This document shows, in pieces, positions 1,093 to 45,525 of a stretch of 64,000 nucleotides of DNA. The stretch is from Raillietiella orientalis (Eukaryota), in assembly GCA_036172245.1 (NCBI GenBank), contig JAYWIR010000020.1:2914001-2978000 (forward strand), written 5' to 3'. A program made the position numbers and the translations under genes. Positions within the stretch are counted from its first letter, which is position 1; every line of letters starts with the position of its first letter. The notes under the pieces were generated by a model. It was not told the DNA's origin. It was given only the letters and a program-made list of their open reading frames with translations, and did no database searches.

Positions 1093-1277
1093 ATCCCTTA
1101 TCAATAATCTCCCTAACTGTACTAGCATGCATTAACTAATTTCTTAATATAAGCCCTCTCATCAACTGCAACCCCATAATAATCATCATAACATTTCAAC
1201 CCCTAAACATAAAATTCATTATACCCATCAATAATAAACCAATAAAGAGCCCTGCAATCGCTATATATTTCTCCATG
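1093..1277 (-). pseudogene. nad5: NUMT: fragment of mitochondrial NADH dehydrogenase subunit 5 (C-terminal region)
   Basis: Abrupt A+C-rich block on the + strand. Under the invertebrate mitochondrial code the minus strand reads MEKYMAIAGLFIGLLLMGMMNFMFSGWNVMMIIMGLQLMSGLMLSN*LMHASTVSEIIDKG, with TGA as Trp. It is hydrophobic and ends at a D-x-G(W) motif typical of the ND5 C-terminus. Gene identity is inferred from motifs only. Confidence 0.55.
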
Positions 1278-3366: not shown

Positions 3367-5462
3367 TAACACCCGGATATGCCGGGGCATTTATTTAGGG
3401 AATAAAAATACAATTCCATTTTCTCATGGTGAACCTAAGGGCTCACCACGTCACAGCAACTTGCAGTTTGTCGGTGCAAAGACCGGCGAGGTCCATCCAC
3501 TGCGCAGGGGTAGGGGAAAAACAAACAAAAACAAAAACTGAAACGTGAAACGTGGGGAGGGAAGAAATCTGTAGGGGTGAGGAGGGCGGGGGAGGGATTA
3601 CATTGTGCGTGGAGCGGTTTTCTAGATCCTGTTCATGATCCAAGCAAGCCGCATCCTTTCTGCACCCATTTGGGGCCACCTGGCGATGTTCCACACAAAG
3701 ATGCGCGTCCAATGGATGGCATACCTGCCATACTGTCCTATTCTGGACGCGTTCCATGCCGCCACGATTGCACGAATGCAAAAACAGCACTGCTATAGAC
3801 GCGGCTGGGGTCAAGGCGGCACGCGAGAAGAGGCGCCTGAAAATGTCCCTGGGGTCGCCTCCGCCAATGTTCAGGATCGTTGCAAGACGATTCTAGAGCG
3901 GACGGAGGGCGATGCAGTCCACGAGAAGGTGCGTGAAAGTCTTTTCCCCCGCACCGCTCACACAGGGCATCCACACTTCCACGTGTCCAGTGAGTGAGGC
4001 GTGGTTTGCATGGGAGTCCCCAATGCAGGACGAACAACGCCACCTCCTGCTACTTCATGGGGAGGGAACCACTGTTCCAACACGCTGAGGGCCACTTCAC
4101 CTCCTCCGGAGGTAATGCGAGTAACTCGCCCCGGTGTACAAGTCCATATTCGGTCGCAGCGTCCGGTAGCTGACGAGATGTCCACGCCTTTATCGGTTTG
4201 GTCCTGCCGTCAATGACGCAGGACACATTACACTCCCTCGTCGCTGTCCCTAGCGTTCACCAGGGAGGGCAGCACTGGGGCAAGAGCCCACAGCAGCTTG
4301 TCGTGGGATTTCACATCTGCAGCGTCCAGCGAGCGTGTCTTCTCAGGCAAGTGTTTTTTGTTCCATACGGATCGTTGCCCACGTAGAAACTGACACCCGC
4401 AGCCATGCGGAACAGTTCGCGGGGAGGCAGAAGGTTCAGGCACTCTCCCAAACCACAATGGCTATGCGACGCAGCTGAGGCCTGCATTGCGTGAGCCTGT
4501 CGTCGATCGTCACCAGAAACGACGAGAGTCCTCAGAAACCTGTGGCTCGTTGGGCCAAGAGGCATGGTGGGACGCACGATGGCGTATCCCACAGTTCGAC
4601 CGCAAGGGCGAGAGCCCGGAATCTGGTGAAGCTCCGTGCGCTCCAACGTAAGGTGGCCCAGTCCACCATCCCTACGTGGAGCACACAAGTGCTTCAATCT
4701 CACGCGGGACTTTCCTGTGCGCCACAGGACTGTCCTTAGGAGGCCCGCTGCTCGCTTTCTGATGATGGGAGGGCGGGACAAAAAAGCAGGGGTGGAGGAA
4801 GGGGGCCGCAAACGCGTTCCACCGCGGCTCGTTCCTGCAAGTAAAACTTGCCTTCTTGGAACGGGCCGATCGGCAACAATGCCTTCTGGAGACGGTCGTA
4901 CCAGGCTTCTGCTAGCAGAAGTCCTCCAATGGAACGCCGAGGTACTTCACGTACCACCCTTGAGGATCCCCAAGCGGATCCAGTCCGACCAGTCTTGCCC
5001 ACGTCGCACCGACCGGCACCAAGGACGACTTTTCCCTGCCCGCCTCCAGGCTTGCTCCCCGACTTGACAACTCAAGAAGCGTTCGAGCGCGGACGTCGGA
5101 GTGGTCCCGGGGAGAAGCAGCAGAAGATCATCTGCATAGGTCGATACTGCAGGAGTGCCCGGGCACGAGCTTGACCAGGTTGCCAGAGTTTCCTTGTATG
5201 CTCTCTGCACCAACTCGAAGTGGATCCAAGGGGCTCAGACTATCTCCCTGCCGGGTGCCGCGGCGAACTGATACGCCGTACACGTGCTGGCCGCTGAAAC
5301 CAATATTGATATATGCGTTGCGCCAGCAGGAGCGCAGGTAGGACTGGAACACGGTCGGCAAACCCATGCGTTCCAGTAGCTCCAGAAGGAGTTCCTGGTC
5401 GACGCAGCAGTCGAAAGCTTTGCGCAGATCGACCGCGACTGCAAGGGCTCCTGCCGAGTCGA
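3367..5462 (-). mobile_element. 5'-truncated Tx1/L1-clade LINE (RT C-terminal half, zinc finger, 3' UTR), frameshifted
   Basis: AVDLRKAFD, RRGTRQGDSLSP, YADDLLLL and LHWGLPC...CERCG motifs across several frames. The family 3' terminal AATAAA plus CCCGG-N5-CCGGG hairpin is at 3370-3395. Confidence 0.93.
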
Positions 5463-5999
5463 GCTCCTTGTATTTTTGGCTATATTTTTTGAGCCTTTGG
5501 ATTATGTCATGGGAGCGAAGTCGAGCAATGGTCTTGATTTGAAGGAGTATCATAAAGTTAAGGATTGTGTCGCTGATAGCAATATCCGTTTGCTGAGAAT
5601 GTGGTTCCTGGTTTGTGGCCTGAGTATTCTAAGCTTTTCTCAACGTTGGATTATTTCAGGCGGAAGCCTGGTTCATTTTATGAAGATAGGTTTTCTCGAG
5701 GTGTGAGGGTGTACTACGTTGTTCGTATGATAGTGAGGACTAATGTGGAAGGTGGTGCTTATAGTAGTCGTCGAAAGTGTCCTTAGTTGGACACGGATTC
5801 TGGTTTGGATATGTAGGTTAAGTTGGAGACTTTGCTTGTGTATACAGTACGGCGCGTTTCCGGTTTTACTCTACCGGATGCTTGGGTGCAGCGTAAAGTT
5901 GGTGAAGCTGATATTTTGTTGAAGAATGCGCCGGTGGTGCGAATTCATCGTTCTGTGTATGCTGTTTTTTCGAAAAACGTTCGAAGTGTCAATTGGTGA
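5463..5999 (+). pseudogene. cap: Endogenous CRESS-DNA virus capsid gene, copy 1 (5'-truncated by the LINE)
   Basis: Broken frames give ...RKCP*LDTDSG...PVVRIHRSVYAVF, which align by eye with AKCPWVDSGEDG...PIYRITQKF of the capsid at 6932-7908. Followed by AATAAA at 6003-6008 and convergent with rep. Confidence 0.65.
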
Positions 6000-6002
6000 G
6001 GA

Positions 6003-6040
6003 AATAAATGTAAAAGTTTCTTTAACTATGTTCCTTTATT
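6003..6040. terminator. Convergent polyadenylation signals of cap1 (+) and rep1 (-)
   Basis: AATAAA on + at 6003-6008 and on - at 6035-6040, between the two convergent stop codons. Confidence 0.65.
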
Positions 6041-6061
6041 GCAGGAGTTATTAGGCCTTCG

Positions 6062-6584
6062 TTAACGGTAAGAGTGGTTGGGTTTCGTTGTGCTTGGAGA
6101 ACAAACCCATGGGCGAATGTCGCCTTCTTCTCCAACCTTGCAATCAGTTTTCTTGGACAACGAGTGACTGGAAATGTTTTGTATGATCCATCTATCTGTG
6201 GACATCTTGGAATAGTCCGGTTCTCAATTCGCAAAGACTATAATATGGGGTGGCTGGAAATATTTGATGGATCCTTGGTATTTCGTTATCTTCTTTACTG
6301 CAGTACCAAATGTTGCTCTGAGATGTGCCTTTGGTTCGCTCTAGGTGAGTTTTGTGGAATGGTTTGCGGTGCGAACCAGGCAAAGTTCTCGGCTCCTTGA
6401 GTTGGATGTACCCTTGCAAGCGCGGAGTTCCGGTTTCGGCTGTTTCGCGTACAATGCAGGCGAAGCAGCAGTTTAGTCGGCACCATTGCTTGATGTCTTT
6501 AAACTCTTGTTCTGTGTAATTGCAAAAAGTCATGCACCAATTGAAATTAAGTGCGTAAGGCATATTGACGTCACTGGAGGTCAT
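6062..6584 (-). pseudogene. rep: Endogenous CRESS-DNA virus Rep, copy 1, with an internal deletion of most of the SF3 helicase
   Basis: HUH motifs I (WCMTFCN), II (TPRLQG) and III (YCSKE). At ~6284 it jumps out of frame to the C-terminus [31 protein letters not shown]. Confidence 0.92.
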
Positions 6585-6623
6585 TCACTGCAGGTAAGAC
6601 TGCGGTTCGGATCCTCTTGGTGG

Positions 6624-6631
6624 TTTATATA
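6624..6631 (-). promoter_or_regulatory. TATA box of rep1
   Basis: TATATAAA on the - strand, 40 nt upstream of the rep ATG and next to the ori hairpin. Confidence 0.6.
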
Positions 6632-6658
6632 CTGGCTAAGTGCGCAGTACTTTCGTTA

Positions 6659-6690
6659 GCGCAATCTGGTCAGTATTATCCAAATTGCGC
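6659..6690 (+). promoter_or_regulatory. CRESS rolling-circle origin stem-loop
   Basis: GCGCAATCTGG / CCAAATTGCGC form an 11-bp stem with one mismatch. The loop holds CAGTATTAT (6671-6679), one change from the NANTATTAC nonamer. It lies between divergent rep and cap. Confidence 0.85.
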
Positions 6691-6931
6691 AGTAATTATC
6701 CGATACCGTAGGAAATTATGTAAGCAGGTTCATTTTGAGTGGCTGGTGTTCTTTTATCCGCAGTCGTGGAAGACTTAGGAATGCGGAAAAGCGACATGCT
6801 TTCCAGCTGATGAGTCTGGTGAAACCCGACCCCGTGGAAGGCTAGTGTAGTCGGGTGGGCCAAGCCCACCAGCTGAAAGTTAACAGGGGTGGGGGGATTG
6901 AAAAATCCTCAGTAGGCTTTCTAGAAGCCGA

Positions 6932-7908
6932 ATGGCGACATTATGTCGTTTTGCTCGTCGAAAAAGGAAAGATGGTTCTGTCGTTGCTGTAGGGAAGCGT
7001 CGTCGACTGACCAGATTGCGCTCTGGTTATGATACGTTTAAAAGGCGTCGTCGTTGGAATCGTCGTAGGAGAAAAGCTCGATTATATCGTAGTCCTCGTT
7101 GGAGAACTGCTTGTTCTCTTCGTGTAGTGGAAAGGGCTGTGTTGGTTGGTGCGGTTCATTATGCTTCTCTGCGGACGGTGGACAATGATGATGTAAACTG
7201 TTCGTGGTTGTTTGCTTACCTGGAGGATTATAAAACTTTGAGCACGTTATTGAGAACATTAAACTTGGAACAGTATGCGCGTTATTATCATTATGTGAAG
7301 ATAAAAGGATGTGCGACGAAGGTGGAGCCAATGTCTTTGGGTTTAACGATAGGGAATATGGCGGAGGAGTTCGGGATGAAAGTATCGTATAGGAATATGA
7401 TTTTGCACCAGTCGGCTGCGCAGGGTTCCGTCGAAGATGATGCCATTTTTGAGATGATGCCATGGTATTGTGGAAGTCGGCGCCGCAAGGGGAGCATTTC
7501 GGAAACATGGGTGGATTGGATTACGATAATGTGAATGATCGTATATTAGCGCCCGAGACGTCTGGTTATTGGGCGAGATATTTTGGAATACGTTGGTATT
7601 CAAAGGTGTACGTGTTGAAACGGGTGGAAATGGCGGGTTTCTAGGTGCATCGCTATGCAAAGTGCCCGTGGGTGGATTCTGGCGAAGATGGAGGCGTGGA
7701 TTCTGAGACGCATGTGCAAATTGGTTTTGGACGTTTCCATGTCCTGAAGCATATGTCTGCAGTGGTCATACCTGACAATCTGAAAGATGGTTGTGTTCAC
7801 GGTGTGTGTCCGAAGAACGGGCAGCTTGTAACAGGTTATCCGATTTATCGTATAACCCAAAAGTTTTGTTATTTAAGCATCTGCGAGATGGATTGTATGG
7901 CTAAATAA
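6932..7908 (+). pseudogene. cap: Endogenous CRESS-DNA virus capsid gene, copy 2 (full length, frameshift ~7530, stop at ~7642)
   Basis: Very Arg-rich N-terminus (KRRRRWNRRRRKARLYRSPR), YARYYHYVKIKG and CPWVDS. Divergent from rep across the ori, with AATAAA at 7904 and 7921. Confidence 0.85.
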
Positions 7909-7937
7909 ACGTTAAGTTGGAATAAATTATTTTTATT
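7904..7937. terminator. Convergent polyadenylation signals of cap2 (+) and rep2 (-)
   Basis: AATAAA on + at 7904-7909 and 7921-7926, and on - at 7932-7937, overlapping the stop codons. Confidence 0.65.
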
Positions 7938-8635
7938 GGTCTACTTCAACGAAAAAGGGAGACAGTGTACTGGCTTGGGAAGAGGCAGGTGACTGCTCTG
8001 GTCTTGTGCTTGAAGAGGCAGTCCACGGGAGGATGTCTCCTACTTTCCAGTCGGTCTTGCGGCTGAGGGTAGAGCTGCCGATGTTGTGTACAATCCATCG
8101 GTCGTTTGATAGTTTTGTGTACTCCGGCTCCCAATTCGCGCAAACGATGATGTGGGGTGGTTGGAAGTACTTATTGGAGCCTTGATATTTGGAATCAAAT
8201 ATGATTCCGTTCTTGAGGCTTTCGATGAAGTCGTATTGGACGTGCTCCATGTTATCTTTTGAAAAGTCGACAACGATGATACTCTCGCCATTGTCAAAAT
8301 GGGCGGCGTCGGCTTTCTTGCAGCTGTGCATGTATATTCCGCCTTTCTTTAGAAATAGAAACTTGGCCCTGGTTGTCTTGCCGGTGTTTCCTATGGTATC
8401 ATAGTACCAGTGGATTTTCCGATCGTTGGGTTTGTGTCGGATGAGGTCGAGTATTCTGAGTTGCTATTCTCTAAGTTGTAGCCCTGCGAGCGGGTTCGGA
8501 TGGAGTCGTGTTCTGGAGAGGCGAAAGCATTCCTTTATCAAATTGATATTCTTTGCATAAAAGTGAGTGTGATTCTTCCGGATGTATAACTCGTCTGTGC
8601 CGTTTTCAATGAGTTGTAATATCTGGAATGGAAAT
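7933..8635 (-). pseudogene. rep: Endogenous CRESS-DNA virus Rep, copy 2 (SF3 helicase half, nanovirus/alphasatellite-like), 5' part replaced by a LINE
   Basis: LRE*Q...DRKIHWYYDTIGNTGKTT (Walker A), IIVVDFSK (Walker B), ESLKNG...SKY, [8 protein letters not shown] (motif C) and LSNDRW. One in-frame stop at 8464. Confidence 0.93.
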
Positions 8636-11916: not shown

Positions 11917-12164
11917 GTCGCAATTCACACCCGGATGTGCCGGGGCATTTATTTCTTTGAAATAAAAATACATGAAATGTCGCAATTGACACCCGGATGT
12001 GCCGGGGCATTTATTTCTTTGAAATAAAAATACATGAAATGTCGCAATTCACACCCGGGTGTGCCGGGGCATTTACTTCTTTGAAATAAAAATACATGAA
12101 ATGTCGCAATTCACACCCGGGTGTGCCGGGGCATTTATTTCTTGGAAATAAAAATACATGGAAT
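11917..12164 (-). repeat. Four tandem 62-bp copies of the LINE 3' terminal unit (AATAAA plus hairpin)
   Basis: Units start at 11917, 11979, 12041 and 12103. Consensus GTCGCAATTCACACCCGGRTGTGCCGGGGCATTTATTTCTTTGAAATAAAAATACATGAAAT, with no spacers. Confidence 0.95.
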
Positions 12165-14947
12165 ATCGCGTGGCGAACTCGAAGGTTCACCACTCCAAAA
12201 CAGCTTGCTGGTTACCGGCTCCATGCCGGAGAGGTCCTTCCGATGCGCGGGGATGGGAAATAAAGAAAAACAAAAAGAAACAAAAAGTTCAAATGTGGGG
12301 GAGGGAACAAATGTTGTAGGGGTGGGAGGGCCGGGAAGGGATCACGGTGCGCGTGGAGAGGTCCTCTAGATCCTATTCAGGATCCGCACAAGCTGAGTCC
12401 TTTCAGCGCCCAAGTGGCGCTACTTGCAGACACTGCGCGCGAAAAGGCGAGTCCAGTGTAAGGCGTTGCCGGTTGGCTGGCGCCTTCTTCTGGTGGCGTT
12501 CCAAGCCGCCACTATTCCTCTGATGCAGCAGAGGACTGCTACACTAGCGGGCGGGGACAAGGCGTCACTACAGAAGAGGCGCCTGAAAACGTCCTTTGGG
12601 CCGCATCCGCGCAAGTCCAGGATCGCCGCGAGACGATCCCACAAAGGGCGGAGGGCGCTTCATTCAAGGAGAAGGTGGGGGAATTTTTGTTTTTCCCCAC
12701 ACCGGTCACAATTGGGATCCACAGCCCCCCGGGTGGTGTGGTGCAGGCGTGCTTTGAATGGTAATCCCCAGAGTACCACAAGCAACGCCACATCCTGCCA
12801 TTTCAGGGGGAGGGATGCACTGTTCCAGGACGCTGGGGGCCACTTCATCTCCTCCGGAGATAGTCCGAGTAGCTCACCCCAGCGTCGAAATCCGTTGGGC
12901 GGGACGCTCGGCGTCGCAGCGTGAGCTAGCTGCCGAGATGTCCACGCCTTTATCGATTGTGTCCTACCGCCTATAGTGCAGGACACGGTCCATTTCCCCT
13001 GCTCGCTACTGTCCCTGGCATTCACAAGGAGGGGCAGCACTGGGGCAAGGGGGGTTATCAAGGCCCACAGAAGCTTGTCGTGGGACTGCACGATCTCCTG
13101 CAGCGTCCAGCGGGCGTGCCTTTTCATACAAGTGTTCCTTGTGCCCGCCGGAACGTGGATCTTTTCCCAGGTGGAGACTGACTCGTGCAACCAGGCGGAG
13201 TAGTTCCCTGGGAGGCAGGAGATCCAGGCGTTCTCCCGGACCGCAACGAATATGCGTCGCAGCATAGAGCCACAGTACGGTCTTCTGCAGACGCGCGCAG
13301 ACAGAAACGACAAAAGTCCGTCGAATCCGCAGGCTCGTTGGGCCAGGAGGCGTGCTGGAACTCACCAAGGCGTGTCCCACAATTCCGCCGCAAGGGCGAG
13401 AGTCCTGAACCTGAGTTGTAGTTCCATGCGCTCCAGCGTAAGAACGCCAAGTCCACCGTCCTTACGTGGAGCGCACAAGTCTTTGAGCCTCACACGGGAC
13501 CTCCCTTTGCCCCAAAGGACTGTCCTCAGGAGGCCCGCTGCTCGTTTTCGGAGAAAATAAGGGGCGGGGCAAACAAAAAGTAGGGGGCGAAGGAGGGGAG
13601 CCGCAAACGCGTTCCACACCGCGGCCCGTTCCTGCAAGTAGAACTTGCCTTCTTGGAACGGACCGATCGCCAACGCTGCCTTTTGGAGACGGTCGGACCA
13701 GGCTTCTGCTGCGCAGAAGTCCCCCATCGGAACGCCTAGGTACTTGAAGCACCTGTCCGTGGGGATCCCCAAGCGGATCCAATCCGACCGTCCAGCCCAC
13801 GCCGAACCGACGAAGACCATGGACGACTTCGCCCTGTTCACCTCCAGGCCCGTCCCGCGGCGCAGCAACTCGAAGTCCTCGAGCGCACTCGCCGGGGTGG
13901 ACCCGGGAAGCAGCAGCAGAAGATCGTCTGCATAGGCCGACACGGCAGGCGTGCCGGCACACGAGCTCGGCAGGGCTGCCAGAGTTACCCTGTATGCCCT
14001 CAGCACCAACTCAAAGTAGATGCTGAAGAGCAAGGGGCTCAGGCTGTCACCCTGCCGGATGCCGCGGCGTACGGGCACGCCGTACACGTGCCGGCCGCTG
14101 AAACCAATATTGATTGAAGCGTTGCGCCAGCAGGAGCGCAGGTAAGATTGAAGCACGGCAGGGAAACCCATGCGTTCCAGGAGCTCCAGAAGGAGATCCT
14201 GGTCGACGCAGTCGAATGCTTTGTGCAAATCGACCGCGACGGCAAAGGCTCCCGCCGAGTCCATCCCACCCTCTGCCCGATCTTCTTGGTCAGAGGGGGG
14301 CGCGAGGCTCCCTTGACCGTCCTGTGCAACGCGTTGTCGCAACGGCCACCATGAGCTGGCGAGGAGCAGGTTGGCCTCCATGGTTCGTCCGGGAACAGCA
14401 TAGGTCTGCTCGGGACTCACCACGGAAGCGGCCACCCGCCCCAAACGCTCAGCCCACAACTTGGCATACAACTTTGCGTCCGCATTCACTACTGTGATGG
14501 GACTCCAGTTGCCAATGTTGCGTAAGTCTCCTGACTTCGGCAGGAGACGTACTTTAGCTGACCGGAACGAGGCGGGAACTTCGCCGTGTTCGCGGATCAG
14601 CGCACTTAACCTGAGCACCAGGGGGGACAGCTCTGGCGCGAAGCGATGGTAAAACTCCGCGGGCAGGCCGTCCTCCCCTGGTGCCTTCCTTCTCTTGAGC
14701 CTGTTGATGGCGGAGATGATCTCTGCCATCGTGAACGGTTCCGCCAATCTGGAACGGTCCTCCTCCTTGAGCGCGGGAGCGCCATCCGGCAGCAGGCGCT
14801 GCGCGAAATGGCGCTCAGGTGTCAGTGGCGCGTACAAGGAGGAATAAAACTCCCGCACGATGCGGCTTACCTGGGCTGGGCTGGAGCGTTCTTGGCCCTG
14901 ATGATCCAGCAGGCTGGCCGAGCCTGACTGCCAGGCCTGCCTCTCCG
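11917..14947 (-). mobile_element. 5'-truncated Tx1/L1-clade LINE (complete RT domain, C-terminal zinc finger, 3' UTR)
   Basis: Begins at ERQAWQSGSASLL. Has KAPGEDG, VDLHKAFD, GIRQGDSLSP, YADD, FKYLG and CDRCGEKQKFPHLLLEC, with frameshifts in the C-terminal part. Confidence 0.95.
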
Positions 14948-27289: not shown

Positions 27290-30200
27290 CCTTGCGCTCG
27301 TACAGTGCAGACGTGTTTCCGCGTCTATCCGCGCTAACGTTCGGGCAACTTTGTGCCTGCGTTTTCCCTCGCACTTGTGTGTTCCTGTGCAATCTGCCAA
27401 GTAGCATAGTGCAACATGTCCAGTACACAGGATAGTGTGGAGGAGGCAAGCCACTGGATGCACTTCAGCTGCACTTGAAGTGGCCGCATCCTCCGTAATG
27501 ATTTCCTCGCCCCCGGTGAGGAGTAACGCCGCCGTTACCTCCCAAAGACCAGGACCCTGCGATGCGGAGTTCCAGGCATATGTGTCATCAGGATACATTC
27601 CTGCACTCCGTTATAAGGTCAGTGGTCCCCTTAACGGGAGAATCCGTAGTGAGCTCAATGATGAGCTCGTCCGGATCGGCGTTCGCGAGGAGGAACTCCT
27701 TGCCATAATGCCTGCTGGCAGGATGGAATATACGAAGATTCGGTGCAAGAACGCAGCACTTGTGCAGCGCCTGCTCAGTACGCCGTTGAATATCACTGGT
27801 AAGGAAGTCCTACCTACCGCGATGGACGACTCTTTTGTCGTTCAATTGTGCGACATCGAACCGGAAATCTCCGACCGGGATGTTGTAAGCGTGCTGGCGA
27901 ATTTCGCCACCGTGCACGCCCTGTGGAGGAGGCCGAACCCTTTGAAGGATTTCTCCTCTGTCCACATCGGACAAGCCTCCGAGCGGATCACCGTCGCGAA
28001 CAGGCGTGTTGTGCCTGAGCATCTGCAGGTGAACGGCACGGTCGTTTACCTTTGGTTCATAGGCCAGACTTGCGCGTGCGAGCAGTGAGGCAATTATATG
28101 CACCGAATTAAAGTGTGCCCCTCTCCAAGATGCCGCTATTGCAAAGATTCCGGGCACGAAATCAAAAAGTGCCCAGTACTCGCCAGAAAAAGAGCCGCAG
28201 CGGAAATTCGTCGAGTTCAAGAGACCACTGCACGAAAAGCCGCAGCGGCAAATAAAAAAAGTCGTCCGCAAAAACTCGGAAAAAACAACGAGCCATGCGC
28301 GGATGAAAAGAAAGCATCCTCGCCCCCAACGCGGTGACTTTCTCCGAAAGGGGCGTAGCCAACAGCAGAGATTTTCTGCAGGCCCGCTTCTTTTCCAGGC
28401 GCACGGACGTTGGTCGATTATCCGAGTAGAAGGCCAAGGCCGAGCGCCAGGTCTGGCAGTCAGGGGCGACAGTTCTGCTCGACGACCAGGACCGGGAATG
28501 CTCGGCTCCAGCCGACGTGCGACGGATAGTCAGGCGCTATTACTCTTCTCTGTATGCAGAGGCACCGACGGAACGCAGCCTCTCCCGGCTGCTTCTGCCG
28601 ATTGATGCACATGTTCTAGACGAGGAGGAACGCGCGCGTCTTGATGAGACCTTCACGGCAGAGGAAATTTCCTCGGCCATCTCGGGGCTCAAGAGACGAA
28701 AAGCGCCAGGCGAAGATGGGCTCCCCGCTGAATTCTTCCAGTGTTTTGCGGCGGAGCTCATCCCCCTGGTGCTCCAACTCTCGTCGCTGATGCGAGACTC
28801 GGGCGATGTCCCCGCCTCGTTTCGCTCAGCGAAGGTGCGTCTACTGCCGAAAAGCGGAGATTTGCGCCAACTGAACAACTGGCGTCCGATCACGTTGGTG
28901 CATTCGGACGTCAAGTTGTTCTCGAAACTTTGGGTGGCGCGGATGGGTAGGATCCCGGAATCCTTGGTAAGTCCGGAGCAGACGTACGCTGTTCCTGGGC
29001 GGTCCATGGACGCGAATCTCTTGTTCATCCGCACATGGCTGCAATTGCAGCATCGTGGCGGTGGATCGTCGTGCGGAAGCGACGCCTTCGATCTCTCACC
29101 GAAGGAGGCGCGGGACGCAAAGGGAGACACCGGGAGCCTTGGCGGTTGCAGTCGATTTGCACAAAGCTTTCGATTGCGTGAACCAAAAGCTTCTTCTTGA
29201 GCTTTTGGAACGTCTGGGTCTTCCAGCATCCCTGTTGGCGTACTTGCGCTCCTGCTGGCGGCACGCGATTACATCCATTGTTTTCAGTGGCTGTCGCGTG
29301 TATGGCGTGCCGGTACGACGAGGAATTAGGCAGGGTGATAGCTTAAGCCCGCTGCTCTTCAGCATCTATTTTGAATTGCTGCTGGAGGCTTACAGGCTGA
29401 CGCTAGCCAACCTGCCGAGCTCCTGTCCAGGTACGCCGGCCGTGGCAGCGTATGCCGACGACCTGCTTCTTCTGTTGCCCTTGTCCACCCCGACGGCGTC
29501 GCTTGAAGATTTCTTTGAGTTGATCCGTCGCGGTGCGGGCGTGAGCGTTAATAGGAGTAAGTGTATGGTTGTTCCGCTGGGTGCGACGTGGGAGGGGCAG
29601 TTCGACTGGATCGGCCTGGGGATCCCCACGGGCGGGTACGTCAAGTACCTTGGCGTTCCGTTGGGCGCTCTCGGCGCAGCCGAAGCGTGGTCGGACTGCC
29701 TTCAGAAAGCAGTTGGCCGTCAGCCCGTTCATTAACGGCAAGCTTACCTTGCAGGAACAGGCGACTATTTGGAGCACCTTTCTGGCCCCCCTCCTCCGCC
29801 CCCTCTTTTTTGTTTTGGACCCCCCCTATGCGGCAAAACAGCGGGCTAAACGCTTGCTTAGGAACGCTCTCAGGGGTCTGGAGAGATCCAGGATCCGCCT
29901 TAAAGACTTGGCTGCTCCACGTCGGGATGTTGGTTTGGGTATCCTGACAATGGAGCGAATCGGACTGCAGGTGCAGTTCCTGCTGGCACCGTGTGCCGAG
30001 CTGTGGACATCCCCCCTGTGTGTGCCTGCACGTATTCTCCTGCGGAGATGCGCCGGCAGCAGAGGACTGCTCTCGCTTTTGCCGGGCACCCAATACAGGA
30101 AGCGAGGTTTCGGGTATCCATTGCGGCAATCGGTCGCACTTCTGGAAGCCCACTCGTGGATCTGCTGCCCAATGAACTTCGACGCTTGGCGGCAGGAGTC

Positions 30201-31357
30201 TGTTGTATCCTGGGCGGCGTTCCAAGGAATACGCCCTGAAGATCTTCGCCCCCTGCGCCAATTTTTTCCGCGATCCTTGGAAGAAGTACTGCAGGACGAG
30301 GTGAAGTTTTGTACCCTGGCTGCCACGCCTCTTGCCGCAGCGCTGTCTGCCCTCAGGGCAAGAAACGACAGTTACCAACCGGCGAGGTGGGAGGTTTCCT
30401 GCACGATAGCGGGAAGAACCAAACTCCTTGGCACCTGGAAGACAAGTGAGTTGGCGGACGCCGCCACTCCTCGTGTTACTGCAAAGGGACTCCTCCGGTG
30501 GGCAGAAGAACTTGCTGTCACCCCCGAAGAACTTGTAGTCCCTCCACAGTGTATTGACAGTTCGCTGCTTCCCCTTGCTTGGAAACAAGCCGTGCTGCTT
30601 TTCGTTCACTGGGGTTTTCAGTGCAACGAGCGTTGGCATCGTGACTCCGGGGGACTTGCGTCTGCGAACTGCGTTCGGTACGGATCGACGGAGTCGATCC
30701 CGCACCTACTTCTGGACTGCGGTGTCCTACAAGGACCGTGGCGTAGGCTGGCAACAGCACTAATGCATCCCGTGGACACCGCAAGAGACTTGCTGCGACG
30801 ATTCTTCACGCCGAGCGGGCTGTCCCTAAGCGCAAGGATTGCAAGCATCGGTTGCATACGCGCGATAGTTTCAGTCCGCCAGGCGTTGGTATTCAACGGG
30901 TAGCACCAAGAGGTAATCGGCAAAGCATCCTTCTACATGGAAGCAGCCGCTAGATGGCCTCATTTGACAGAGGAGTCAAAAAGGAATCTCGCCGAAATAC
31001 ACCGCCGGTTTACACACGCTCAGCAGTGGCCAACCCGGTGATCATTGCCCTACCCTCCATGAACTAATTTTGTATTTTCTTTTCACATCCCCGTCCCCAT
31101 AGGCTCCGGAACATTTCAGGTGCTCCCGGTTTGAATCCCCGTGAGTACGGAGCCTAACCAAAGACCCGTTACCCTTCCCTCCAGTTTTTGTATTTTTGTT
31201 TGTTATCCCCTTATTCCTCCCACGTTGCGAGCGGTTTGTTTACCAGGCCTGCGTGCCAGTAATTTATCTCTGTTCCCTGTCGTTCTGTTGGTTGGGGACA
31301 TTGTCCCTGATTAGTTTCTTATTATTAATAAACGTCCCGGCGTAACCGGGTGACAAA
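27290..31357 (+). mobile_element. Tx1/L1 LINE with an internal deletion of the ORF1 tail and the whole endonuclease
   Basis: 5' GACGTGT motif at ~27310 and ORF1 with CACEQ*GNYMH and CRYCKDSGHEIKKC. Jumps at ~28335 to the ORF2 linker. RT motifs QGDSLSP, YADD and KYLG, with terminal AATAAA-hairpin at 31327-31350. Confidence 0.92.
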
Positions 31358-31591
31358 TTTCAATCTCCGTAAACCAGATAAACGGAAATCCAGTAAACAC
31401 ACTAATAGTATTCCAGGGAATAACATGACATTAGGCCTGATATGCCTTAGCCAGGTAGCCTCCTCAAAACGCATGTGCACGCCAAGCATGTGCGACATGT
31501 ATGGTGCTAGGAGCAATACCAGATACGAGCATGCTATGATGTATGCATGGTGGTTTGGGGTGAATGGGCGACAGATCATGCCTACAATGAA

Positions 31592-31615
31592 TACTAACTG
31601 TCTTTCTTCCTCCAG
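31592..31615 (+). promoter_or_regulatory. Branch point, polypyrimidine tract and 3' splice acceptor upstream of the viral NP-like ORF
   Basis: TACTAAC-TGTCTTTCTTCCTC-CAG, with the AG at 31614-31615, 22 nt before the first ATG. Confidence 0.55.
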
Positions 31616-31656
31616 TGCTATTAGTGACTATTCCGCAATGGCTGCTGCGAGCGAGG

Positions 31657-32829
31657 ATGACGTTGCTAACAACCTTTGAGGAATACAGTTCTAGTTTGCC
31701 CGATCTCGATGGAGACATCGAGATTGGTCTTACGACAAGGACTGATATAGCGTTGCCCGAAGATCGTCGACTCCCTGTATACCAACCGACAAACGCGAGG
31801 GCAACCATAGAGAATATCGCCGCTGTCGCCAACGGTTGGTTATATGCCGCCAAACATTTCAAAGATGCCCAAATATCCTTAATGGTGAACGGGATCTATG
31901 CGTTATTAACGTATGACATGGTCCGTTTCCGATCATTGGACGGTACACTAGTCCCTGATGGTGACTGGAGAGTAACCACTCAGCGTTATGACCTAAGGCA
32001 TACCCAGAGAGCTGCCAGTCAATCTATGCTCAACCAGCAGACGGCGACCAATTTGATGATACCGGTGGTAGCCACTAAGGTTTCTTGGTGGCTAACCAAC
32101 CATCATACTGGCGTCAAGGACAGTTCGAGAGGTGCTGGCTTCCCCCTAAAGGTGTGGCGAGCTCTCTTTGCGCGTTCTCCCCTATCTGAAGAGAAGGGGA
32201 TGGATGTAGCACACACTTTAGGCCACTTCGCCAGTACCTTAAGGATTATGGAATTAGCTGGTTTCACTCAGATTATCCCGTCTGTACCGATCGACATGCA
32301 AGGACCACCGTTTAAACAAGTAACAATCTCTCAGGATGCACTCCTTCGTTTCCTCTCGCCCCCCGCCGGTACTCACAGACACGCTGTGGCGTACCAGGCT
32401 TTTAAGAGGCTTGTGAACTGGGCCCAAGCCGCTAATTGCCCTGAAATCGAGAACATGTTGTTTTTGGGCGAAGTTTATGCGGAAATAATGTTAAACTCCA
32501 AGCACTATCACATCGGTGCGAAATACATAGCGGGGCAACCGAGGACTAACTTCAACGATGCAGATGCGGACTCGACATTGGGAAGACTGGGTTCGTTTAT
32601 TCTAAACGTCTACCCGAAGTCTACTCTTTGTCTCTCCCCGCACATGACACAACAGGCAGTGGAATCGAAGGAGGATTTCTCCCCGGAGTGGGAGGCATTC
32701 CGCGCTAAAGTACCCAAAGAGCTATCACTTAGACCAATTGAAATGATCATCCCTACTCCCGGTGTTGACAAGGTTGCCTCCAGCCCCTCAGCTCACTCGG
32801 ACACGAATTACACGATGACGAACGAATAG
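31657..32829 (+). CDS. Uninterrupted 390-aa ORF, putative endogenous negative-strand RNA virus nucleocapsid protein (Qinviridae-like)
   Basis: Long, intronless, globular-looking ORF unrelated to the LINEs. The motifs ATKVSWWLTNHHTG, SPPAGT, YHIGAKY and STLCLSPH match my recollection of qinvirus segment-2 proteins. The ORF is certain; the family call needs a homology search. Confidence 0.6.
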   Translation: MTLLTTFEEYSSSLPDLDGDIEIGLTTRTDIALPEDRRLPVYQPTNARATIENIAAVANGWLYAAKHFKDAQISLMVNGIYALLTYDMVRFRSLDGTLVPDGDWRVTTQRYDLRHTQRAASQSMLNQQTATNLMIPVVATKVSWWLTNHHTGVKDSSRGAGFPLKVWRALFARSPLSEEKGMDVAHTLGHFASTLRIMELAGFTQIIPSVPIDMQGPPFKQVTISQDALLRFLSPPAGTHRHAVAYQAFKRLVNWAQAANCPEIENMLFLGEVYAEIMLNSKHYHIGAKYIAGQPRTNFNDADADSTLGRLGSFILNVYPKSTLCLSPHMTQQAVESKEDFSPEWEAFRAKVPKELSLRPIEMIIPTPGVDKVASSPSAHSDTNYTMTNE

Positions 32830-34621
32830 TATGCATAAACTCGATGAAATATCCACCCTTGGTCATGTATGTGCATTTACTGTTCACCTCTTTTTGGTGA
32901 ATCTATCCACCCAGAGGCGAAACTATGCATGGACTATTGGCATTCTCATGACTGCAATAGTCGAAATTACTTCCAACTTTAGCTTTTATTGTTTTACGTT
33001 AAATGTCCCACAATAATTTCAAGGAAATATCCACTGCACCTCTCCGAAGCAAAGGTAGTAGAGAAAAAAGCACATTTGCAAAGTACCTCCCGCCAATAGA
33101 AACGCGTCATTTCATCGGTTGTAAAAAGTCGGTCACTGCACAGTCTAGTTCTGTGAATTCATAGTACGCATGGATCTCTTAAGATTCTGGATACAGAACG
33201 ACTTCAGTGAAAACTTAGGAACGATATTTTGTAGGCCAAAAATGACAACTAAGCAATACAATCCTTAAAACAAAGTAGAAAATTGTTTTTGCTAATTGCA
33301 AACCAAACAGCAGAGTTCATGGATAGATGGACAATTAGAAAAATCGCTTATGCAAACGATAAATGGACGAACATCGTCGTGAGAGAAGATAGCCATATGC
33401 TATTCCAGCAATCATTCTCCACTAACAGTTCAGACCAGTGTCAAGTCCCTCAATTGAACCAATGCCATTGAATAAACCATTTATCGAAATCAACACTTCA
33501 ATCAATGTTTTCGGCATCCATGTTCGACGGTACTTCCTCTTGCATCTCCTTTGCCTTCCGAACCAATTGCTTTCACAGAGATTCAAATTCGTTCCTTCAA
33601 ACTGCTTCAAATAGTCCCTCGCTTTTCATGTCCGCATCTACATGATTTTCCATGGAAAACTATGAAACTTAGGCAAGGGGACATCCTCCCACATTTTCTA
33701 TCAACAGTTGCATTATTCAATCAACTTGTAAACAGCTGCAAATTGCAGTAGTATGTGGAAACAAGATACAACCGAAATGTACTTCTCCTACTGCTTTAAA
33801 ACTGTGAAGACCATTCCTCAGGTTTTCTATGGGCAGAATGCCCAAGTCAGCATACAATTGGACATTCCTGTCGTAAAATGCGACAACTCGTTAACATTAA
33901 CAAGCGAGCAACTACCAAAATCCCTAATGAAACGTATTCCAAAAGCACAAACTGGTGATCCAAGATGACTGCAGGAAAGTCTATATTCACAGAATGGTAC
34001 GTAAACTTCCATACAGCAATTTTTTAACCTCCTGTCACTTCATAATAAAACAAGGTATCCAGTTCATACACAAGTTGTCAAACATAGCGTACGAGCGTCC
34101 TTCGAGCACATATACGAAAAATTAAAACTCTAAATTCTCCATCCCACAATCCAATGGATATTGAACTTTTCGACACCAAGCAACCAAAGTATCCGTGAGG
34201 TGCTTAGAAATAAAAGACAAACAACCTCAAGAAAAGTCAATTAGGGTGTAACCATGAATGTGTATCCCTCCACAGCTTTCGGATCCCTCTTCCCATTGTG
34301 AGGGACTACGGTTTGCTCATTGGAAGCATATTCACCGAATGAAACTGAACCACTAGTGCTCGATGGCAATTACCAACGTCCTGACTTGTGAGAAAACTAG
34401 AGTGGTGGTCCTTATCCGAAAGAGACCTTGATGCATATTGTTTCCGCGCGATGCATATGAGTACTGTCTACTGCCCATGCATGATACTGCACTGGGCATG
34501 CTACTTTCTGAGCCAATTTATCCCCAGTGGAGAAGTTGCCATTGCAGAATTATAGGCTCCCAACATGCACGAAGTAGCAATGTCTTCAGTATTTTTTTTT
34601 AACGAAAAGAAAACCTTTCCT

Positions 34622-41574: not shown

Positions 41575-44500
41575 ATGCAAGTGCTGGACACGATTCATTC
41601 GGAATATACCATGTGCAAAGCACACACAAACAGTTGGTATTGTCCAATCTGTGGTCAGTCGCTTCGGATACCAGTGATGCGTAGGAGATTGCAAGCATCC
41701 GGAGCTCTAGGTGCGTGCTCCAGAGTCCGCATGCAGCCGCACCACCTGGGCACCGGCTGCACTCAGATCACTCGATTTCTTGAGCGCCCCGCCTGCAAAT
41801 TAGGTAAATCTCTTGAAGAAGGACGAAGAAGGAGAGGCTCAGGGTACTGGCTACCGCTCTCCTTTCTTCGCCTTTGCAGTGTAGCACGTCGTAGCTCCAG
41901 CATTCTGTACACAGACGACAAGAGGAGGCGATCCTTGGCATCATGACTGGGGAACAAGCAACGGAGTTTCCGCTCTGACTGTCCTCATGCGGCATTTCTC
42001 GGGCAAGTGGAACACATTGCATTTCCCTGGCCCCATCGCACCCGCGTCCTGCCTCTCGTGTGAGGACACCACGCGGATTTCCTCAGACAAAATGGGAATC
42101 TCCATGTTCTCAGAAGCGATGGTGACCACTGAAGGTCTCGTGCCTTTCTGTTTGAGTTTTCGGCTGGCGCCTCCTCGGTGGAAAGCGCGAGCCCTTCCCC
42201 TGTAAGAACGGGCGACTTTCGTTGCTCTTCCTTTCGTTTTCAGGAATCCGCCGGATTGGAAGCAAATCGGAAAGTTTTCCGTCCATAAGTTTTCCAGACC
42301 ATTATCCGAGATCCCTCCCTTGGAAGAAGGAGACGATAGAGGGCTGTTTGTCAACTTGGAAGGACTTATAAGCCCTCTGATCAAAGATCAGATAGAAGAA
42401 AACACCGGAAAGGAGCAATTGCAGCCCGCTATCATTGATTACAAAGTATGGTGTGATTCTCCTCTCCCTAGACCATCCTCCTTTAGCCACAGTTGCTCAT
42501 GGAGAAACTACAAAAGGAACGAGTGAGACGGAAGCTATACAGAAGATATGAAAACCAAAAGGCAGAAAAGGAAAGTGGACATGGAGGACGAACTACGCCT
42601 CCTATAGAGGAGCGAAGCTATCTTCAGAGGATCCTGGAAGAAGGGAATCCTCGCTGGGAGGACTTTCTTGAGATATATCAAAAGGTGAAACTCAAAATCC
42701 AGGAGACACTTAACATAAAAACAGAGAGGGAAGGCGGAAAAAAACTAAGGATTGACCCTAACAACAGATCGTCAATTTAAAAGCTCTAATAACCGATTCT
42801 TCTCATTACACTTCATTCTACCTTCCATCATAGTAATCATTTCCATAATACACCTATTCTTTCTACACAAAACCCTTTCCTCAAACCCCCTAGGCACTAA
42901 AAGAAACCTAGACATACTACCTTTCCGACCATTTTTTATCATTAAAGACCTAACAAGCCTTCTACCACTTATTACACTCCTCCTATTTACATCCACCTTC
43001 TTCCCTTATATATTTATATCCGAAGAAAATTTCATAATCTCTAACCCTCTAATAACTAACGTTAATAGAAGAGGAGCAATTAGAGCGATTCTGGGCCAGC
43101 AGGACGCGACCTGTAAGCTGGAGACCGAGAAAGTTGAAAGGCATTTTGCAAAGGAACTTGAAATGAAGCAGGAAGCGAATAAGGAGCTTCCCAAGAAGAT
43201 AGTGCTAGGAAGTACCCAAGCAGCATCCCCCGTGGATCCATCTCCATTCACTAAGGAGGAGGTAGCTGCAATATTGCTCACTGCAGGGAATTCATCCCCC
43301 GGAGAGGATGTTATTATGTAAGCCAGGTGAAAGAGCATCGATCCAGAAGCTGAAATACTCAGCAATTTTTAATCTGCTAAGAAGTTTTCTGCGGATTCCG
43401 GAAGAGTGGAAATGTACCAGAACGGTACTCAAAGCGAAAAGCCCTGCAGCAGCAGAGGGCATCTCTAGCTGGAGGCCAATATCCATTGGCAATAGTGCCT
43501 ACAGGCTCTATGCCAAATGTTTGGCCTCCCGACTCAGAAGATGGATTCTGGAAAATGAAGTCATCGGCACTCAGCAGAAGGGATTTCTGCCCTTCGATAG
43601 AGTGCTGGAGCAAAACTTCAATCTGTAAGCAAGGTTAGATGCTACACGTCGTCTGTCGAAGGACTTCTGCGAGGTCTTCATCGACTTCGCGAACGTCTTC
43701 GGCACAGTTTCCCACGACATTATGATGGGAACACTGAAGAAAGCAGGTGCTGGAGATGGCATAAGAAATATTGTCACCGACATATATATAAGAAGTTCCA
43801 CCTCCTTTCAACTGGAAAATGCTGAAACCGGGACCTTCTCAGTACAGCGCGGAGTGAAGCAGGGATGTCCCTTAAGCTCACTCCTTTTTACCATATCGAT
43901 CGAACCGATTCTACGCTTGATGAGGCAAATCTACCGGGACGAGGCAACATTAGTCTATGCCGATGACATCGTCACACCGGGGAAGGAGGAAAAGAAAGTC
44001 CAGGAAATGATGGCACATTTCCAGAGGTTATTCGACCAGGCCGGCCTATCCATCAACCCGGCAAAATGCGCATCGATATACTACAGCGGCCGAACCCCTA
44101 AAGGTATGAGGGATGTGGACATCCAGGTTAAGGAATAGAAAATCATTTGTATTGCCTTATCACAGGCATACAAATACCTGGGAAAACCCTTTGGTATGAA
44201 GGTCTTCAACAGACAACCGTCTAAGGAGGACATCTGCCAGAAGGCGAGTGCCATACTTGAGAGTGAACTCTCAGGATGGCAGAAATTAGACGTCATGAAA
44301 ACCTTCTATCCCATCCTAGTTCACTACGAGAGGCTGGGAACTCACTGGAGGAAGGAATGGCAGTATGTCGACGAGCAAGTAAGGAAGAAGATTAAGAAGG
44401 CCCTTACCTTATCACCCTGGACAGCTAACGAGTATCTCTACGGAGAAAGAACGAAAGGCTGCCTAGGACTAATGAAGTTAGCTCAAGAGTTCGATACCAT

Positions 44501-45525
44501 CATCTTGGATAGCTGCTTTAAACTGCTAACGTCGGCACACAAAGCAGTAAGCAAAATTGCAAGAACAACTCTGGATGACATCGTGCAAACACGGATGCAA
44601 GAAGCTCCGACAAATGAAAATCTCTGGGAATTCATGACGGGCAAGAAGATCGCAAGGCCCGGTAGGGATGTTGAGAGCCTCTGGTCGAAAGCAAGGAAGG
44701 TTTCTAGACAAAGAAAGGCATGCTGGGAGTTTCGGCAACAAGAACCCAGTATCACGGTGGAAGGAATACTCTTCACCAGCAGCTCAAGAAGACGGCTCGC
44801 CTCCGACGTAAGAGCATTGCAGCGAGAGCATACATGGCAATGCCTTATTGAAAATCACGTTAGTCAAGGGAAGACCATGCAGTGTGTGAGCATGCATCAC
44901 TCTTCAAGCTTCTTCCAGACAAACGTAATCCACCTAAGATACCAAGACCACTGGTTCATCCATGCGGCAAGACTGAACCTTCTGCCACTAAACGCTGGAC
45001 CAACAAAGAAGGTTTCATGAAAGGATACGTTGGTGTTGTGGAACAGAGGACGAAACATTATCGTATGTGCTGAACAGATGCAAAAAGTACTCGCCTTTGA
45101 CGACGCAGAACCATGATGCTATCCTGTAAATCATCAAGGCCGCAATAGAGGAAGCCAAGTGGACTCTGGTATCAAGCAATCGCAGAGTGCCAGGAACCAC
45201 CTACACTCTAAAACAAGTCCTTGTTTCAGAGAAAAGCGATCGAATATGTGTGCTGGACATCTCCTGCCCATTTGAAAATGGAAAGGAGGCATTCACCACA
45301 TCTAGGAAAATAAAGGAAGCTAGATACCAGGATGCCGTCATGCAACTCGGAAACACTGGGCAAAGTGCAGGCGATCCATGTCAGCTCACTTGGAGCATGG
45401 GATACTGAAAACGACAACGTTCTACAATACATGGGAATTCCGAAAAAGAAGCTGATAAGGATACGTCAGCGGATGGTGGCCACCTGCATCCGCTTATAAA
45501 GCAGCATTTATGCAACGCATATAAG
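41575..45525 (+). mobile_element. Decayed R2-group (Utopia/NeSL-like) non-LTR retrotransposon: N-terminal zinc finger, RT, restriction-like endonuclease
   Basis: YCPICG, SSPGED, WRPISIGN, QQKGF, RGVKQGCPLS, YADDI, YKYLG, WQKLDVMKTF, NEYLYG, WFIHAARLNLLPLN, C-x-x-C...ETL...C and DISCPFEN...K...Y. Many stops and frameshifts; ends are approximate. Confidence 0.88.
42791..43056 (+). pseudogene. cytb: NUMT: mitochondrial cytochrome b fragment inserted in the retrotransposon
   Basis: NRFFSLHFILP...HLFFLHKTLSSNPLG...PFRPFFIIKD...EENFIISNPLIT is a clear cytochrome b signature, with abrupt A+C+T-rich composition. Confidence 0.95.

Follow-up and report, generated by a model that had tools for sequence, protein, structure and literature searches.

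The 64-kb window, that is, the whole stretch of DNA analysed here, carries on its forward strand a full-length open reading frame for a qinvirid-like nucleocapsid protein, called N below (31657..32829). It begins with an ATG at 31657, ends with a stop codon at 32827-32829 and comprises 390 codons plus stop that are interrupted neither by stops nor by frameshifts, as the earlier note had claimed. The family profile aligned with it over positions 2-369 of 370, and N is present as a single copy in the window. Upstream, the frame stays open as far as 31591, next to a TGA at 31588-31590, and the 22 in-frame codons separating this TGA from the ATG (31591..31656, + strand) are without homology to the relatives. 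The long frame does extend back to a putative splice acceptor, as had also been proposed, and an exon starting at 31616 would be read in phase 1.

This acceptor-like motif (31592..31615, + strand) is composed of TACTAAC at 31592-98, a pyrimidine tract at 31601-13 and an AG at 31614-15, so the combination of TACTAAC, pyrimidines and CAG described earlier ahead of the ORF is indeed read there. An exon spliced at the motif would begin at 31616, 41 nt before the N ATG. When the combination was defined as TACTAAC at most 40 nt upstream of a YAG with at least 13 pyrimidines among the 15 nucleotides before the YAG, it was found once on both strands of the window, whereas 300 block-shuffled windows contained it 0.037 times on average. 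TACTAAC itself has its sole occurrence in the window at this place. Small introns running to the acceptor from GTATGG (31499, 117 nt) or GTATGC (31541, 75 nt), the only two GTATG-type donors checked, with the frames worked by hand, are not supported; neither joins an ATG-bearing frame to N, and no in-frame upstream exon was obtained from these two donors.

Between the acceptor-like motif and the N start lies an out-of-frame ATG at 31638 in good context (a purine at -3 and G at +4), opening an upstream ORF of 13 codons plus stop (31638..31679, + strand) that overlaps the N start and whose frame is open back to 31350. The resulting 109-codon frame (31350-31679) had no homologue among 168 family proteins (best E 9.4). 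There is no need to suppose that this ATG was the original viral start and that a 1-nt indel separated it from the long frame: homologues begin 5-8 residues ahead of the conserved LP-x-(I/L)-(N/D)-G motif, and the ATG at 31657, 13 residues ahead of it, already fits as a start.

Further upstream is a 5'-truncated LINE, copy C (28352..31357, + strand), whose ORF2 homology is spread over three frames and thus implies at least two frameshifts. Its 3' UTR, with an AATAAA at 31327, ends in a hairpin motif and has no poly(A); the end motif is common to three copies and stops at about 31357, 300 nt before the N ATG, in line with the distance given previously. The spacer that follows (31358..31590, + strand) is unique in the window and may represent either a viral 5' UTR or host or filler DNA. 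It holds 14 ATG triplets, making 15 upstream of the N start together with the one at 31638, whereas no upstream ATG occurs in the 5' UTRs of two viral segments, L001 and L002. On the other side of N, the downstream flank (32830..33122, + strand) has a GC content of 39.6%, like the background, an A6 run at 33064-33069 and a weak motif resembling a viral terminus at 33110-33121. No poly(A) tail was found after N, only the A6 run 234 nt past the stop, and the first AATAAA is at 33471, 640 nt past the stop.

The window as a whole is rich in foreign sequences. At least six LINE copies are nested in both orientations, and the 23 kb upstream of N form a LINE nest. A fragment of a CRESS-DNA Viral_Rep gene (6195-6584) constitutes a second EVE, unrelated to N, and a cytochrome b fragment (42623-43066) is fused to a 5'-truncated LINE, the two parts standing in the classical chimera order. 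The best protein matches of the cytochrome b fragment reach at most 53% identity, and one LINE ORF2 has 66% identity to a JGI protein. Atlas clusters matching the LINE are labelled Chordata and Basidiomycota, but on so few members that the labels are not reliable. The statement that all other viral and transposon genes identified in the window are broken holds broadly for those examined, copy C being frameshifted and the CRESS Rep and cytochrome b being fragments, but LINE ORFs of 583-688 aa are open elsewhere in the window. No viral RNA polymerase was detected among 157 translated pieces of the window scanned against Pfam, and no host exon or gene was recognised anywhere in the 64 kb. The Rfam scan of the window gave neither a spliced-leader RNA nor any other family, the tRNA scan of the window gave none, and the 30-36 kb region contains no tandem repeats.

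The guess that N is a Qinviridae-like nucleoprotein was borne out both by BLASTP and by Foldseek, two of the homology comparisons that the earlier note had proposed: viral homologues are present, and qinvirus nucleoproteins come top in BFVD. In BLASTP, the S-segment protein of Wuhan insect virus 15 (YP_009342457.1) aligns with N over 355 aa at 33% identity (E 1e-53). A protein search returned 10 homologues with E values from 6e-60 to 4e-26, and a profile search found 714 cluster representatives with E <= 1e-3, including 219 with E <= 1e-30; by tblastn, N also matched the 1601-nt IMG/VR locus L001 (E 4e-54). Among predicted models, that of N (pLDDT 71, pTM 0.74) was matched by Foldseek in BFVD to those of Wenzhou qinvirus-like virus 1 (E 2.7e-19, TM 0.71) and of the Sanxia qinvirus-like virus 1 nucleoprotein (E 3.6e-19, TM 0.74), and all top seven matches, with E from 2.7e-19 to 7.7e-11, are qinvirus or qin-like N proteins or unnamed relatives. 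Comparison with solved chains by VIA-align placed mononegaviral nucleoproteins at 9 of the 12 best matches, but with Z scores of only 4.3-6.0; the best was hPIV3 N (Z 6.0, 218 residues aligned, rmsd 5.5), and in a Foldseek search of the PDB it was RSV N with an E of only 0.13. The mononegaviral matches in VIA-align agree with the ICTV profile, according to which the qinvirid S segment encodes a nucleocapsid protein that is a relative of paramyxovirid N (PMC10721934). The N ORF had no hits when its sequence was searched against Pfam, in which this family has no model, and against the PDB; the ESM Atlas gave only unrelated short phage-protein clusters with scores of at most 0.89.

N has kept 28 of the 31 family-conserved residues, and the three changes are all conservative. 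A position counted as conserved if at least 85% of 99 homologues agreed on it; these homologues, 340-480 aa long, were selected from the 168 family proteins, the other 69 being left out for length. In conservation, N ranks 41st from the bottom among 100 rows, and in a 100-row tree it sits on a long terminal branch of 1.1 changes per column, the median being 0.77, as a deep lineage without a close sister. The highest identity of N to any sequence in the collections searched is 38%, and no near-identical protein, locus or orthologue was found in the protein and locus collections searched. The source of the EVE is, judged from its sequence, an unsampled qinvirid lineage, because identity is at most 38% and the branch is long.

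Compared with the S-segment N proteins of Qinviridae (genus Yingvirus), the window N belongs to the same family by sequence (E 1e-53) and predicted structure (TM 0.71-0.74), falls in the same length class of about 360-450 aa and has motifs in common around ATK..WWLTNHHTG, PAGTH and HIGA.Y. It differs in residing in chromosomal DNA, whereas theirs is carried on an RNA segment of 1.6-1.9 kb, and in the C-terminal 40 residues, which do not contain the motif common to the relatives. A hidden frameshift near the C-terminus was considered and rejected; nothing in the other frames resembles the tail of the relatives. Segment termini at the window copy are likewise indistinguishable from chance matches. 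EVEs of this virus clade are already on record: a qinvirus-clade EVE in Machilis hrabei (PMC6955108) and, in Camponotus floridanus, EVE7, a fragment of a qinvirus-type RdRp (PMC6540820). Moreover, full-length homologues of N annotated as hypothetical proteins are borne by the genomes of Formica fusca, Bemisia tabaci and Popillia japonica. The same clade has thus been endogenised in invertebrate-type genomes, and several of the N-like copies are full-length open frames, as here. The present copy differs from the known ones in representing a different, deep lineage and in adjoining a LINE 3' end; for the EVEs of basal hexapods, retroposons are reported to be absent from their vicinity (PMC6955108). 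It is a viral fossil of a known type.

That an endogenised nucleoprotein gene lies beside a LINE, as claimed before, agrees with the assembly: N is contiguous with the frameshifted copy C upstream and with 31 kb of non-viral DNA downstream, in a window without any N base. The preferred reading, which we hold to be probable, is that the locus is a non-retroviral EVE from the small-segment N gene of a qinvirid (order Muvirales), young, copied by a LINE reverse transcriptase and most likely inert as a protein, with the acceptor-like motif idle. It would be fixed in the chromosome of its host, probably an invertebrate, or is at any rate assembled into it. The viral N RNA would have been copied into DNA by the LINE enzyme, and the nature of the adjacent LINE family, itself without poly(A) and ending in a 3' hairpin, may account for the absent poly(A) tail. 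A search for a target-site duplication between 27500-28500 and 33050-33300 gave a single shared word of at least 9 nt, a 9-mer (28256/33123) where about one is expected, and its upstream copy sits about 90 nt from the start of LINE homology. Motifs common to the flanks (TATGCATGG, CATGTATG) do not exceed what chance would give (E 0.5-2). It was also considered whether the insert is a whole S segment (31371-33121) with both panhandle termini and with an A-run placed as in L001, L002, L006 and L007, where it precedes the 3' end by 50-85 nt. The motifs are plausibly located, but as evidence the terminus matches were rejected, being within chance: the scores of the motifs at 31371-31383 and 33110-33121 were reached by 65 to 998 of 1000 shuffles, and the complementarity of the 5' and 3' termini was reached in 638 of 2000.

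Two known systems can be set beside this arrangement. In chimeric LINE retrocopies of the U6-L1 type, which arise by template switching of the reverse transcriptase, a copy of a foreign RNA likewise stands directly beside a LINE end. However, the foreign RNA is classically 5' of the LINE, whereas here the order is LINE then virus, the reverse of the classical chimeras, with a 300-nt spacer between. The other comparison is with EBLNs and other EVEs derived from N genes of negative-strand RNA viruses, reportedly treated by Katzourakis and Gifford in 2010 (PMC2987831). As in the window, a haploviricotine nucleoprotein gene has been copied, presumably by LINE machinery, and its frame is open; the predicted fold of N may be of the mononegaviral kind, Borna disease virus N matching at Z 4.7 in VIA-align. 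EBLNs have poly(A) tails, target-site duplications, orthology across species and expression, whereas N has neither a poly(A) tail nor a convincing target-site duplication.

The intactness of N need not imply selection. Under a neutral model with an indel to substitution ratio of 0.1, the frame would survive intact with a probability of 0.29 after 1% divergence, 0.08 after 2% and 0.02 after 3%, so that the open frame is compatible with neutrality if divergence since integration is below about 2-3%; the copy would then be evolutionarily young and its frame open without selection. Material for dating is scarce, as N has no close exogenous relative (best identity 38%, at which synonymous sites are saturated) and no second copy in the window. 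The decay of copy C, with two frameshifts and one or two possible stops in about 2.6 kb, predicts 0.9-1.8 hits in N, and the probability of no hits is about 0.17-0.41, which is not significant. If copy C and N entered together, the broken LINE beside an intact N leans weakly to preservation. Other points that weigh against the preferred reading are the long terminal branch of N, the reversed order of LINE and virus, the lack of a poly(A) tail, and the chance-level 9-mer and terminus matches.

Preservation is the core of an alternative which we regard as unlikely, namely that N is kept by selection, transcribed from an upstream promoter or with a spliced leader joined at 31616, and that its protein would interfere with related viruses in the manner of EBLNs, for which it is claimed that bornavirus-derived proteins interfere with related viruses. 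In its favour are the unbroken frame of 390 codons, in which 28 of 31 conserved residues persist beside a frameshifted LINE, the open full-length homologues in several insect genomes and the acceptor-like motif, with its textbook branch point, pyrimidine tract and AG. This motif was found once in the window against 0.037 expected, lies 41 nt ahead of the N ATG, where a host-driven transcript needs an acceptor, and is followed by an open frame as far as that ATG. Yet the intactness also fits neutrality up to about 2% divergence, the spliced mRNA would still carry the ATG at 31638 in good context, with its short frame overlapping the N start, and the first AATAAA is 640 nt past the stop. Moreover, no host exon was recognised in the window, the upstream 23 kb being a LINE nest, and no spliced-leader RNA or other Rfam family is present in the window. 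The more elaborate form, in which an invertebrate host would have domesticated a qinvirus N by adding an exon or spliced leader at 31616, and the N-like protein would poison the ribonucleoprotein assembly of related viruses, we consider quite unlikely. On the preferred reading of a young and inert EVE, the acceptor-like motif would not be in use and would be a coincidence that this reading does not explain, although it is not expected by chance.

A copy that is inert as a protein may still act otherwise, and if N is active, it would more likely be as a small-RNA template. The locus is dense in transposon fragments and other EVEs, as piRNA clusters are, and arthropod EVEs are enriched in such clusters. 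The nrEVEs of Aedes have been the subject of separate work (PMC8048955). Nested LINEs in both directions, the CRESS Rep and the organelle-derived fragment within 64 kb, together with the lack of a recognisable host gene, would suit an N copy that acts, if at all, through small RNAs against the cognate virus, its open frame being incidental. The mixed orientations of the elements speak against this, since the direction of a single cluster transcript is not readable from them, and we see this role as possible but rather unlikely; it overlaps with the preferred reading rather than opposing it. An artefact, in which RNA or cDNA of an exogenous virus was joined to host DNA by misassembly without any integration, is in our view highly improbable. 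The ORF is as undecayed as that of a live virus, but RNA-virus sequence is normally absent from DNA assemblies, the window is free of N bases and the gene stands between unique flanks, followed by the LINE on one side and 31 kb more DNA on the other. Furthermore, the 300 nt before the N ATG contain 15 ATG triplets, whereas in L001 and L002 the 5' UTRs are free of them.

If N is not functional, as the preferred reading of a young, inert EVE has it, the locus is another young EVE among discarded transposons, still useful as a warning when viruses are sought in this organism's transcriptomes. If the frame is selected and spliced, it would be an invertebrate, non-bornaviral case of a nucleoprotein turned into a host gene. 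In either event, the copy samples missing diversity, as its lineage shows no more than 38% identity to any sequence in those collections that were searched.

Qinviridae are known almost solely from metatranscriptomes. Their virion, replication and translation are listed as unknown in the ICTV profile (PMC10721934), and the only confirmed hosts, according to one paper, are trypanosomatids (PMC11108086). Domestication of N, if true, would provide the first functional gene derived from this family, of which little is known as regards virion, replication and true hosts. If inherited through the germ line, the N copy would show directly that a qinvirid at one time replicated in germ cells of the host lineage, and such evidence would help to settle the host range of the Qinviridae.

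Beside the end of a LINE, in a locus rich in transposons and endogenous viral elements (EVEs), we have identified a full-length, intact endogenous gene for a qinvirid-like nucleocapsid of an unsampled lineage. This N gene is an open reading frame of 390 codons, from ATG to stop, at 31657–32829 on the forward strand, and the window holds one copy of it. Sequence searches of Pfam and PDB gave no matches; a large protein collection yielded 10 homologues (E 6e-60 to 4e-26, identity 30–40%), mostly on contigs of 1.3–2.9 kb, which match a small RNA-virus segment in size, and among 1.84 billion representatives a profile search returned 714 proteins with E ≤ 1e-3, 219 of them with E ≤ 1e-30. Homologues include the hypothetical protein YP_009342457.1 of Wuhan insect virus 15 (a 1601-nt record), which BLASTP aligns with the window protein over 355 residues (33% identity, E 1e-53), and annotated hypothetical proteins of the Formica fusca, Bemisia tabaci and Popillia japonica genomes. 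An AlphaFold model built from an 11-row alignment (pTM 0.74, pLDDT 71) was matched by Foldseek in BFVD best to Wenzhou qinvirus-like virus 1 (TM 0.71, E 2.7e-19) and next to the nucleoprotein of Sanxia qinvirus-like virus 1 (TM 0.74, E 3.6e-19), followed by a Frankliniella qin-like putative nucleocapsid, a Shahe qinvirus-like nucleocapsid, Beihai sesarmid crab virus 4 and Xinzhou nematode virus 3. The guess of a Qinviridae-like nucleoprotein, made from raw sequence alone, was correct. Against solved structures, Foldseek found nothing significant (best RSV N, E 0.13); nine of the 12 best rows of VIA-align, which is independent of Foldseek, are mononegaviral nucleoproteins, with hPIV3 N at the top (rmsd 5.5 over 218 aligned residues, a modest Z of 6.0).

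The gene is full length, since the family profile aligns with the protein over positions 2–369 of 370. The conserved LP-x-(I/L)-(N/D)-G motif lies 13 residues after the in-frame ATG and 5–8 after the starts of relatives; the start at 31657 therefore fits the family, and there is no need for the proposal that the ATG at 31638 was the original start, split off by a 1-nt indel. In an alignment with 99 homologues of 340–480 aa (from the 168 homologous proteins P0002–P0169, 69 being dropped for length), the window protein retains 28 of the 31 positions conserved at 85% or more, the three changes being W to F, L to M and L to I, and its conservation ranks 41st from the bottom of the 100 rows, an unremarkable place in this family. 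The short tail motif of the relatives is absent from its last ~40 residues and from the other frames. In a tree of 100 rows no close sister groups with it, its end branch measures 1.1 changes per column (median 0.77), and the smallest well-supported set containing it comprises 47 rows; by path, Wuhan insect virus 15 and the Formica copy are among its nearest rows. In the collections searched, no sequence exceeds 38% identity to it. Elsewhere, six N-like proteins of 140–423 aa, at least 90% identical (the cluster of homologue P0011), all lie on one 433-kb ENA contig, so qinvirid-like N copies are clustered locally in another genome.

Upstream, from ~8.5 to 31.4 kb (8500–31357), extends a nest of at least six GC-rich (57–63%) LINE copies in both orientations, 68–92% identical among themselves, in which RVT_1, Exo_endo_phos and zinc-knuckle ORF1 domains occur. 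Three copies have in common a 3′ motif of AATAAA, a short hairpin and then GGTGACAA, the 3′ ends in the nest reading AATAAA, the hairpin CCCGG-CGTAA-CCGGG and TGACAA without poly(A). Bordering a LINE ORF1 region, a 62-nt unit occurs in four tandem copies at 11917–12226 (63–97% identical over 124-nt registers). A second, unrelated endogenous viral fragment is a 130-aa open piece matching a CRESS-DNA/circovirus Rep at 6195–6584 on the reverse strand (PF02407 Viral_Rep, E 8e-11, profile 3–82 of 82); the pieces scanned include no helicase part. On the other side, a cytochrome b fragment at 42623–43066 (+), ~36–46% identical to cytochrome b proteins, runs on without a break of frame into the region before the RT of a 5′-truncated LINE of a different, AT-richer family at 43067–45017 (+; RVT_1 E 2e-21), and cytochrome b is not resumed elsewhere in the window; this looks like a template-switch chimera of organelle RNA and LINE, or a LINE that landed at the edge of a NUMT. 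None of 157 translated pieces scanned (only 22 of 56 in 1–8500, of at least 100 aa, and only 14 long ORFs in the LINE nest) had a match to an RNA polymerase of a virus or to any evident host gene. With LINE nest, Rep and cytochrome b fragments together, the locus is a dump of retroelements and foreign fragments, a common setting of non-retroviral EVEs.

A LINE reverse transcriptase is the expected agent of integration, and the cytochrome b–LINE junction is consistent with the RT of this genome having switched to another RNA as template. At the N gene itself, the hallmarks of LINE integration are absent or weak: the insert has no poly(A) tail beyond an A6 run at 33064–33069, the flanking direct repeats amount to one 9-mer (about one expected by chance), and classical LINE chimeras have the opposite order to the LINE-then-virus arrangement seen here. 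The resemblance of the insert to a whole S segment was dropped as evidence, since terminus look-alikes at 31371–31383 and 33110–33121, the latter 40-odd nt after the A6 run, are within chance on shuffling (scores matched by 65 to 998 of 1000 shuffles, 5′/3′ complementarity by 638 of 2000). Two IMG/VR qin-like S-segment loci (L001, L002) and two metagenome contigs of the same kind (L006, L007) have the common terminal motifs AACCACGA... and ...TCGTGGTT, or variants. They also have an A6–8 run, 50–85 nt before the 3′ end, which is a candidate signal for transcription termination/polyadenylation of the N mRNA.

The earlier note had described an intact 390-codon ORF some 300 nt past a LINE 3′ end, behind TACTAAC, a pyrimidine tract and CAG, with an out-of-frame ATG and a long frame open back to the acceptor. 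Since motif, frame, ATG and LINE end were all located, every observed element is in the sequence: the LINE 3′ motif stops at ~31357, 300 nt before the N ATG; TACTAAC (31592–31598), a run of 13 pyrimidines (31601–31613) and AG (31614–31615) follow on the forward strand; the N frame is open to 31591, after a TGA at 31588–31590; and the ATG at 31638 heads a 13-codon frame (+) closing at 31679, 20 nt beyond the N ATG. The 300 nt between LINE and N ATG contain 15 ATG triplets; the 5′ UTRs of L001 and L002 contain none. The frame of the 13-codon ORF is open for 109 codons (31350–31679, +), reaching back to the LINE end, and holds nine of the 15 ATGs within a CATG-rich stretch; no family protein is homologous to it (best E 9.4), and it is probably due to chance, though unexplained.

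Defined as TACTAAC at most 40 nt upstream of a YAG preceded by at least 13 of 15 pyrimidines, the acceptor-like motif has a single occurrence over the two strands of the window, ahead of the N ORF, against 0.037 per shuffled window, and TACTAAC itself is found nowhere else in the window; the motif exceeds chance expectation and is not explained away. Splice signals are not unthinkable in this virus group, although the paper that describes introns does so only for the yue-like viruses. A transcript spliced at 31616 would keep the ATG at 31638, which has G at both −3 and +4 and opens a frame overlapping the start of N. By a hand check of frames, the two upstream GTATG-type donors at 31499 and 31541 link no ATG-bearing frame to N, and neither a spliced-leader gene nor a host exon is visible in the window.

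As to selection, 3.9% of single-base changes would create a stop in the N ORF, and under neutrality (indel:substitution ratio 0.1) the chance of an open frame falls from 0.29 at 1% divergence to 0.08 at 2% and 0.02 at 3%; the copy is therefore younger than ~2–3% divergence, or selected. The LINE directly upstream (28352–31357) is 5′-truncated, and its ORF2 homology runs across three frames, that is, at least two frameshifts; its lesions come to two frameshifts and one or two possible stops in ~2.6 kb. If both entered together, 0.9–1.8 disruptions are predicted in N, with a probability of none of ~0.17–0.41, a weak lean towards preservation that is not significant. The CpG observed/expected ratio of the N ORF (0.94; LINEs 0.99, downstream AT-rich background 0.65) is compatible with youth and not diagnostic of it. 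The evidence decides neither for nor against co-option and splicing of this copy, which are rather unlikely.

Qinvirus-clade EVEs are on record in Machilis (PMC6955108) and, as an RdRp fragment, in Camponotus (PMC6540820). Open N-like genes are moreover annotated in several insect genomes; searches of open-access papers and preprints turned up no intact qinvirid N EVE for which expression or selection had been demonstrated. The N copy thus belongs to an already known kind, and the most likely account, which we consider reasonably probable, is a young, unselected insertion that possibly feeds small RNAs.
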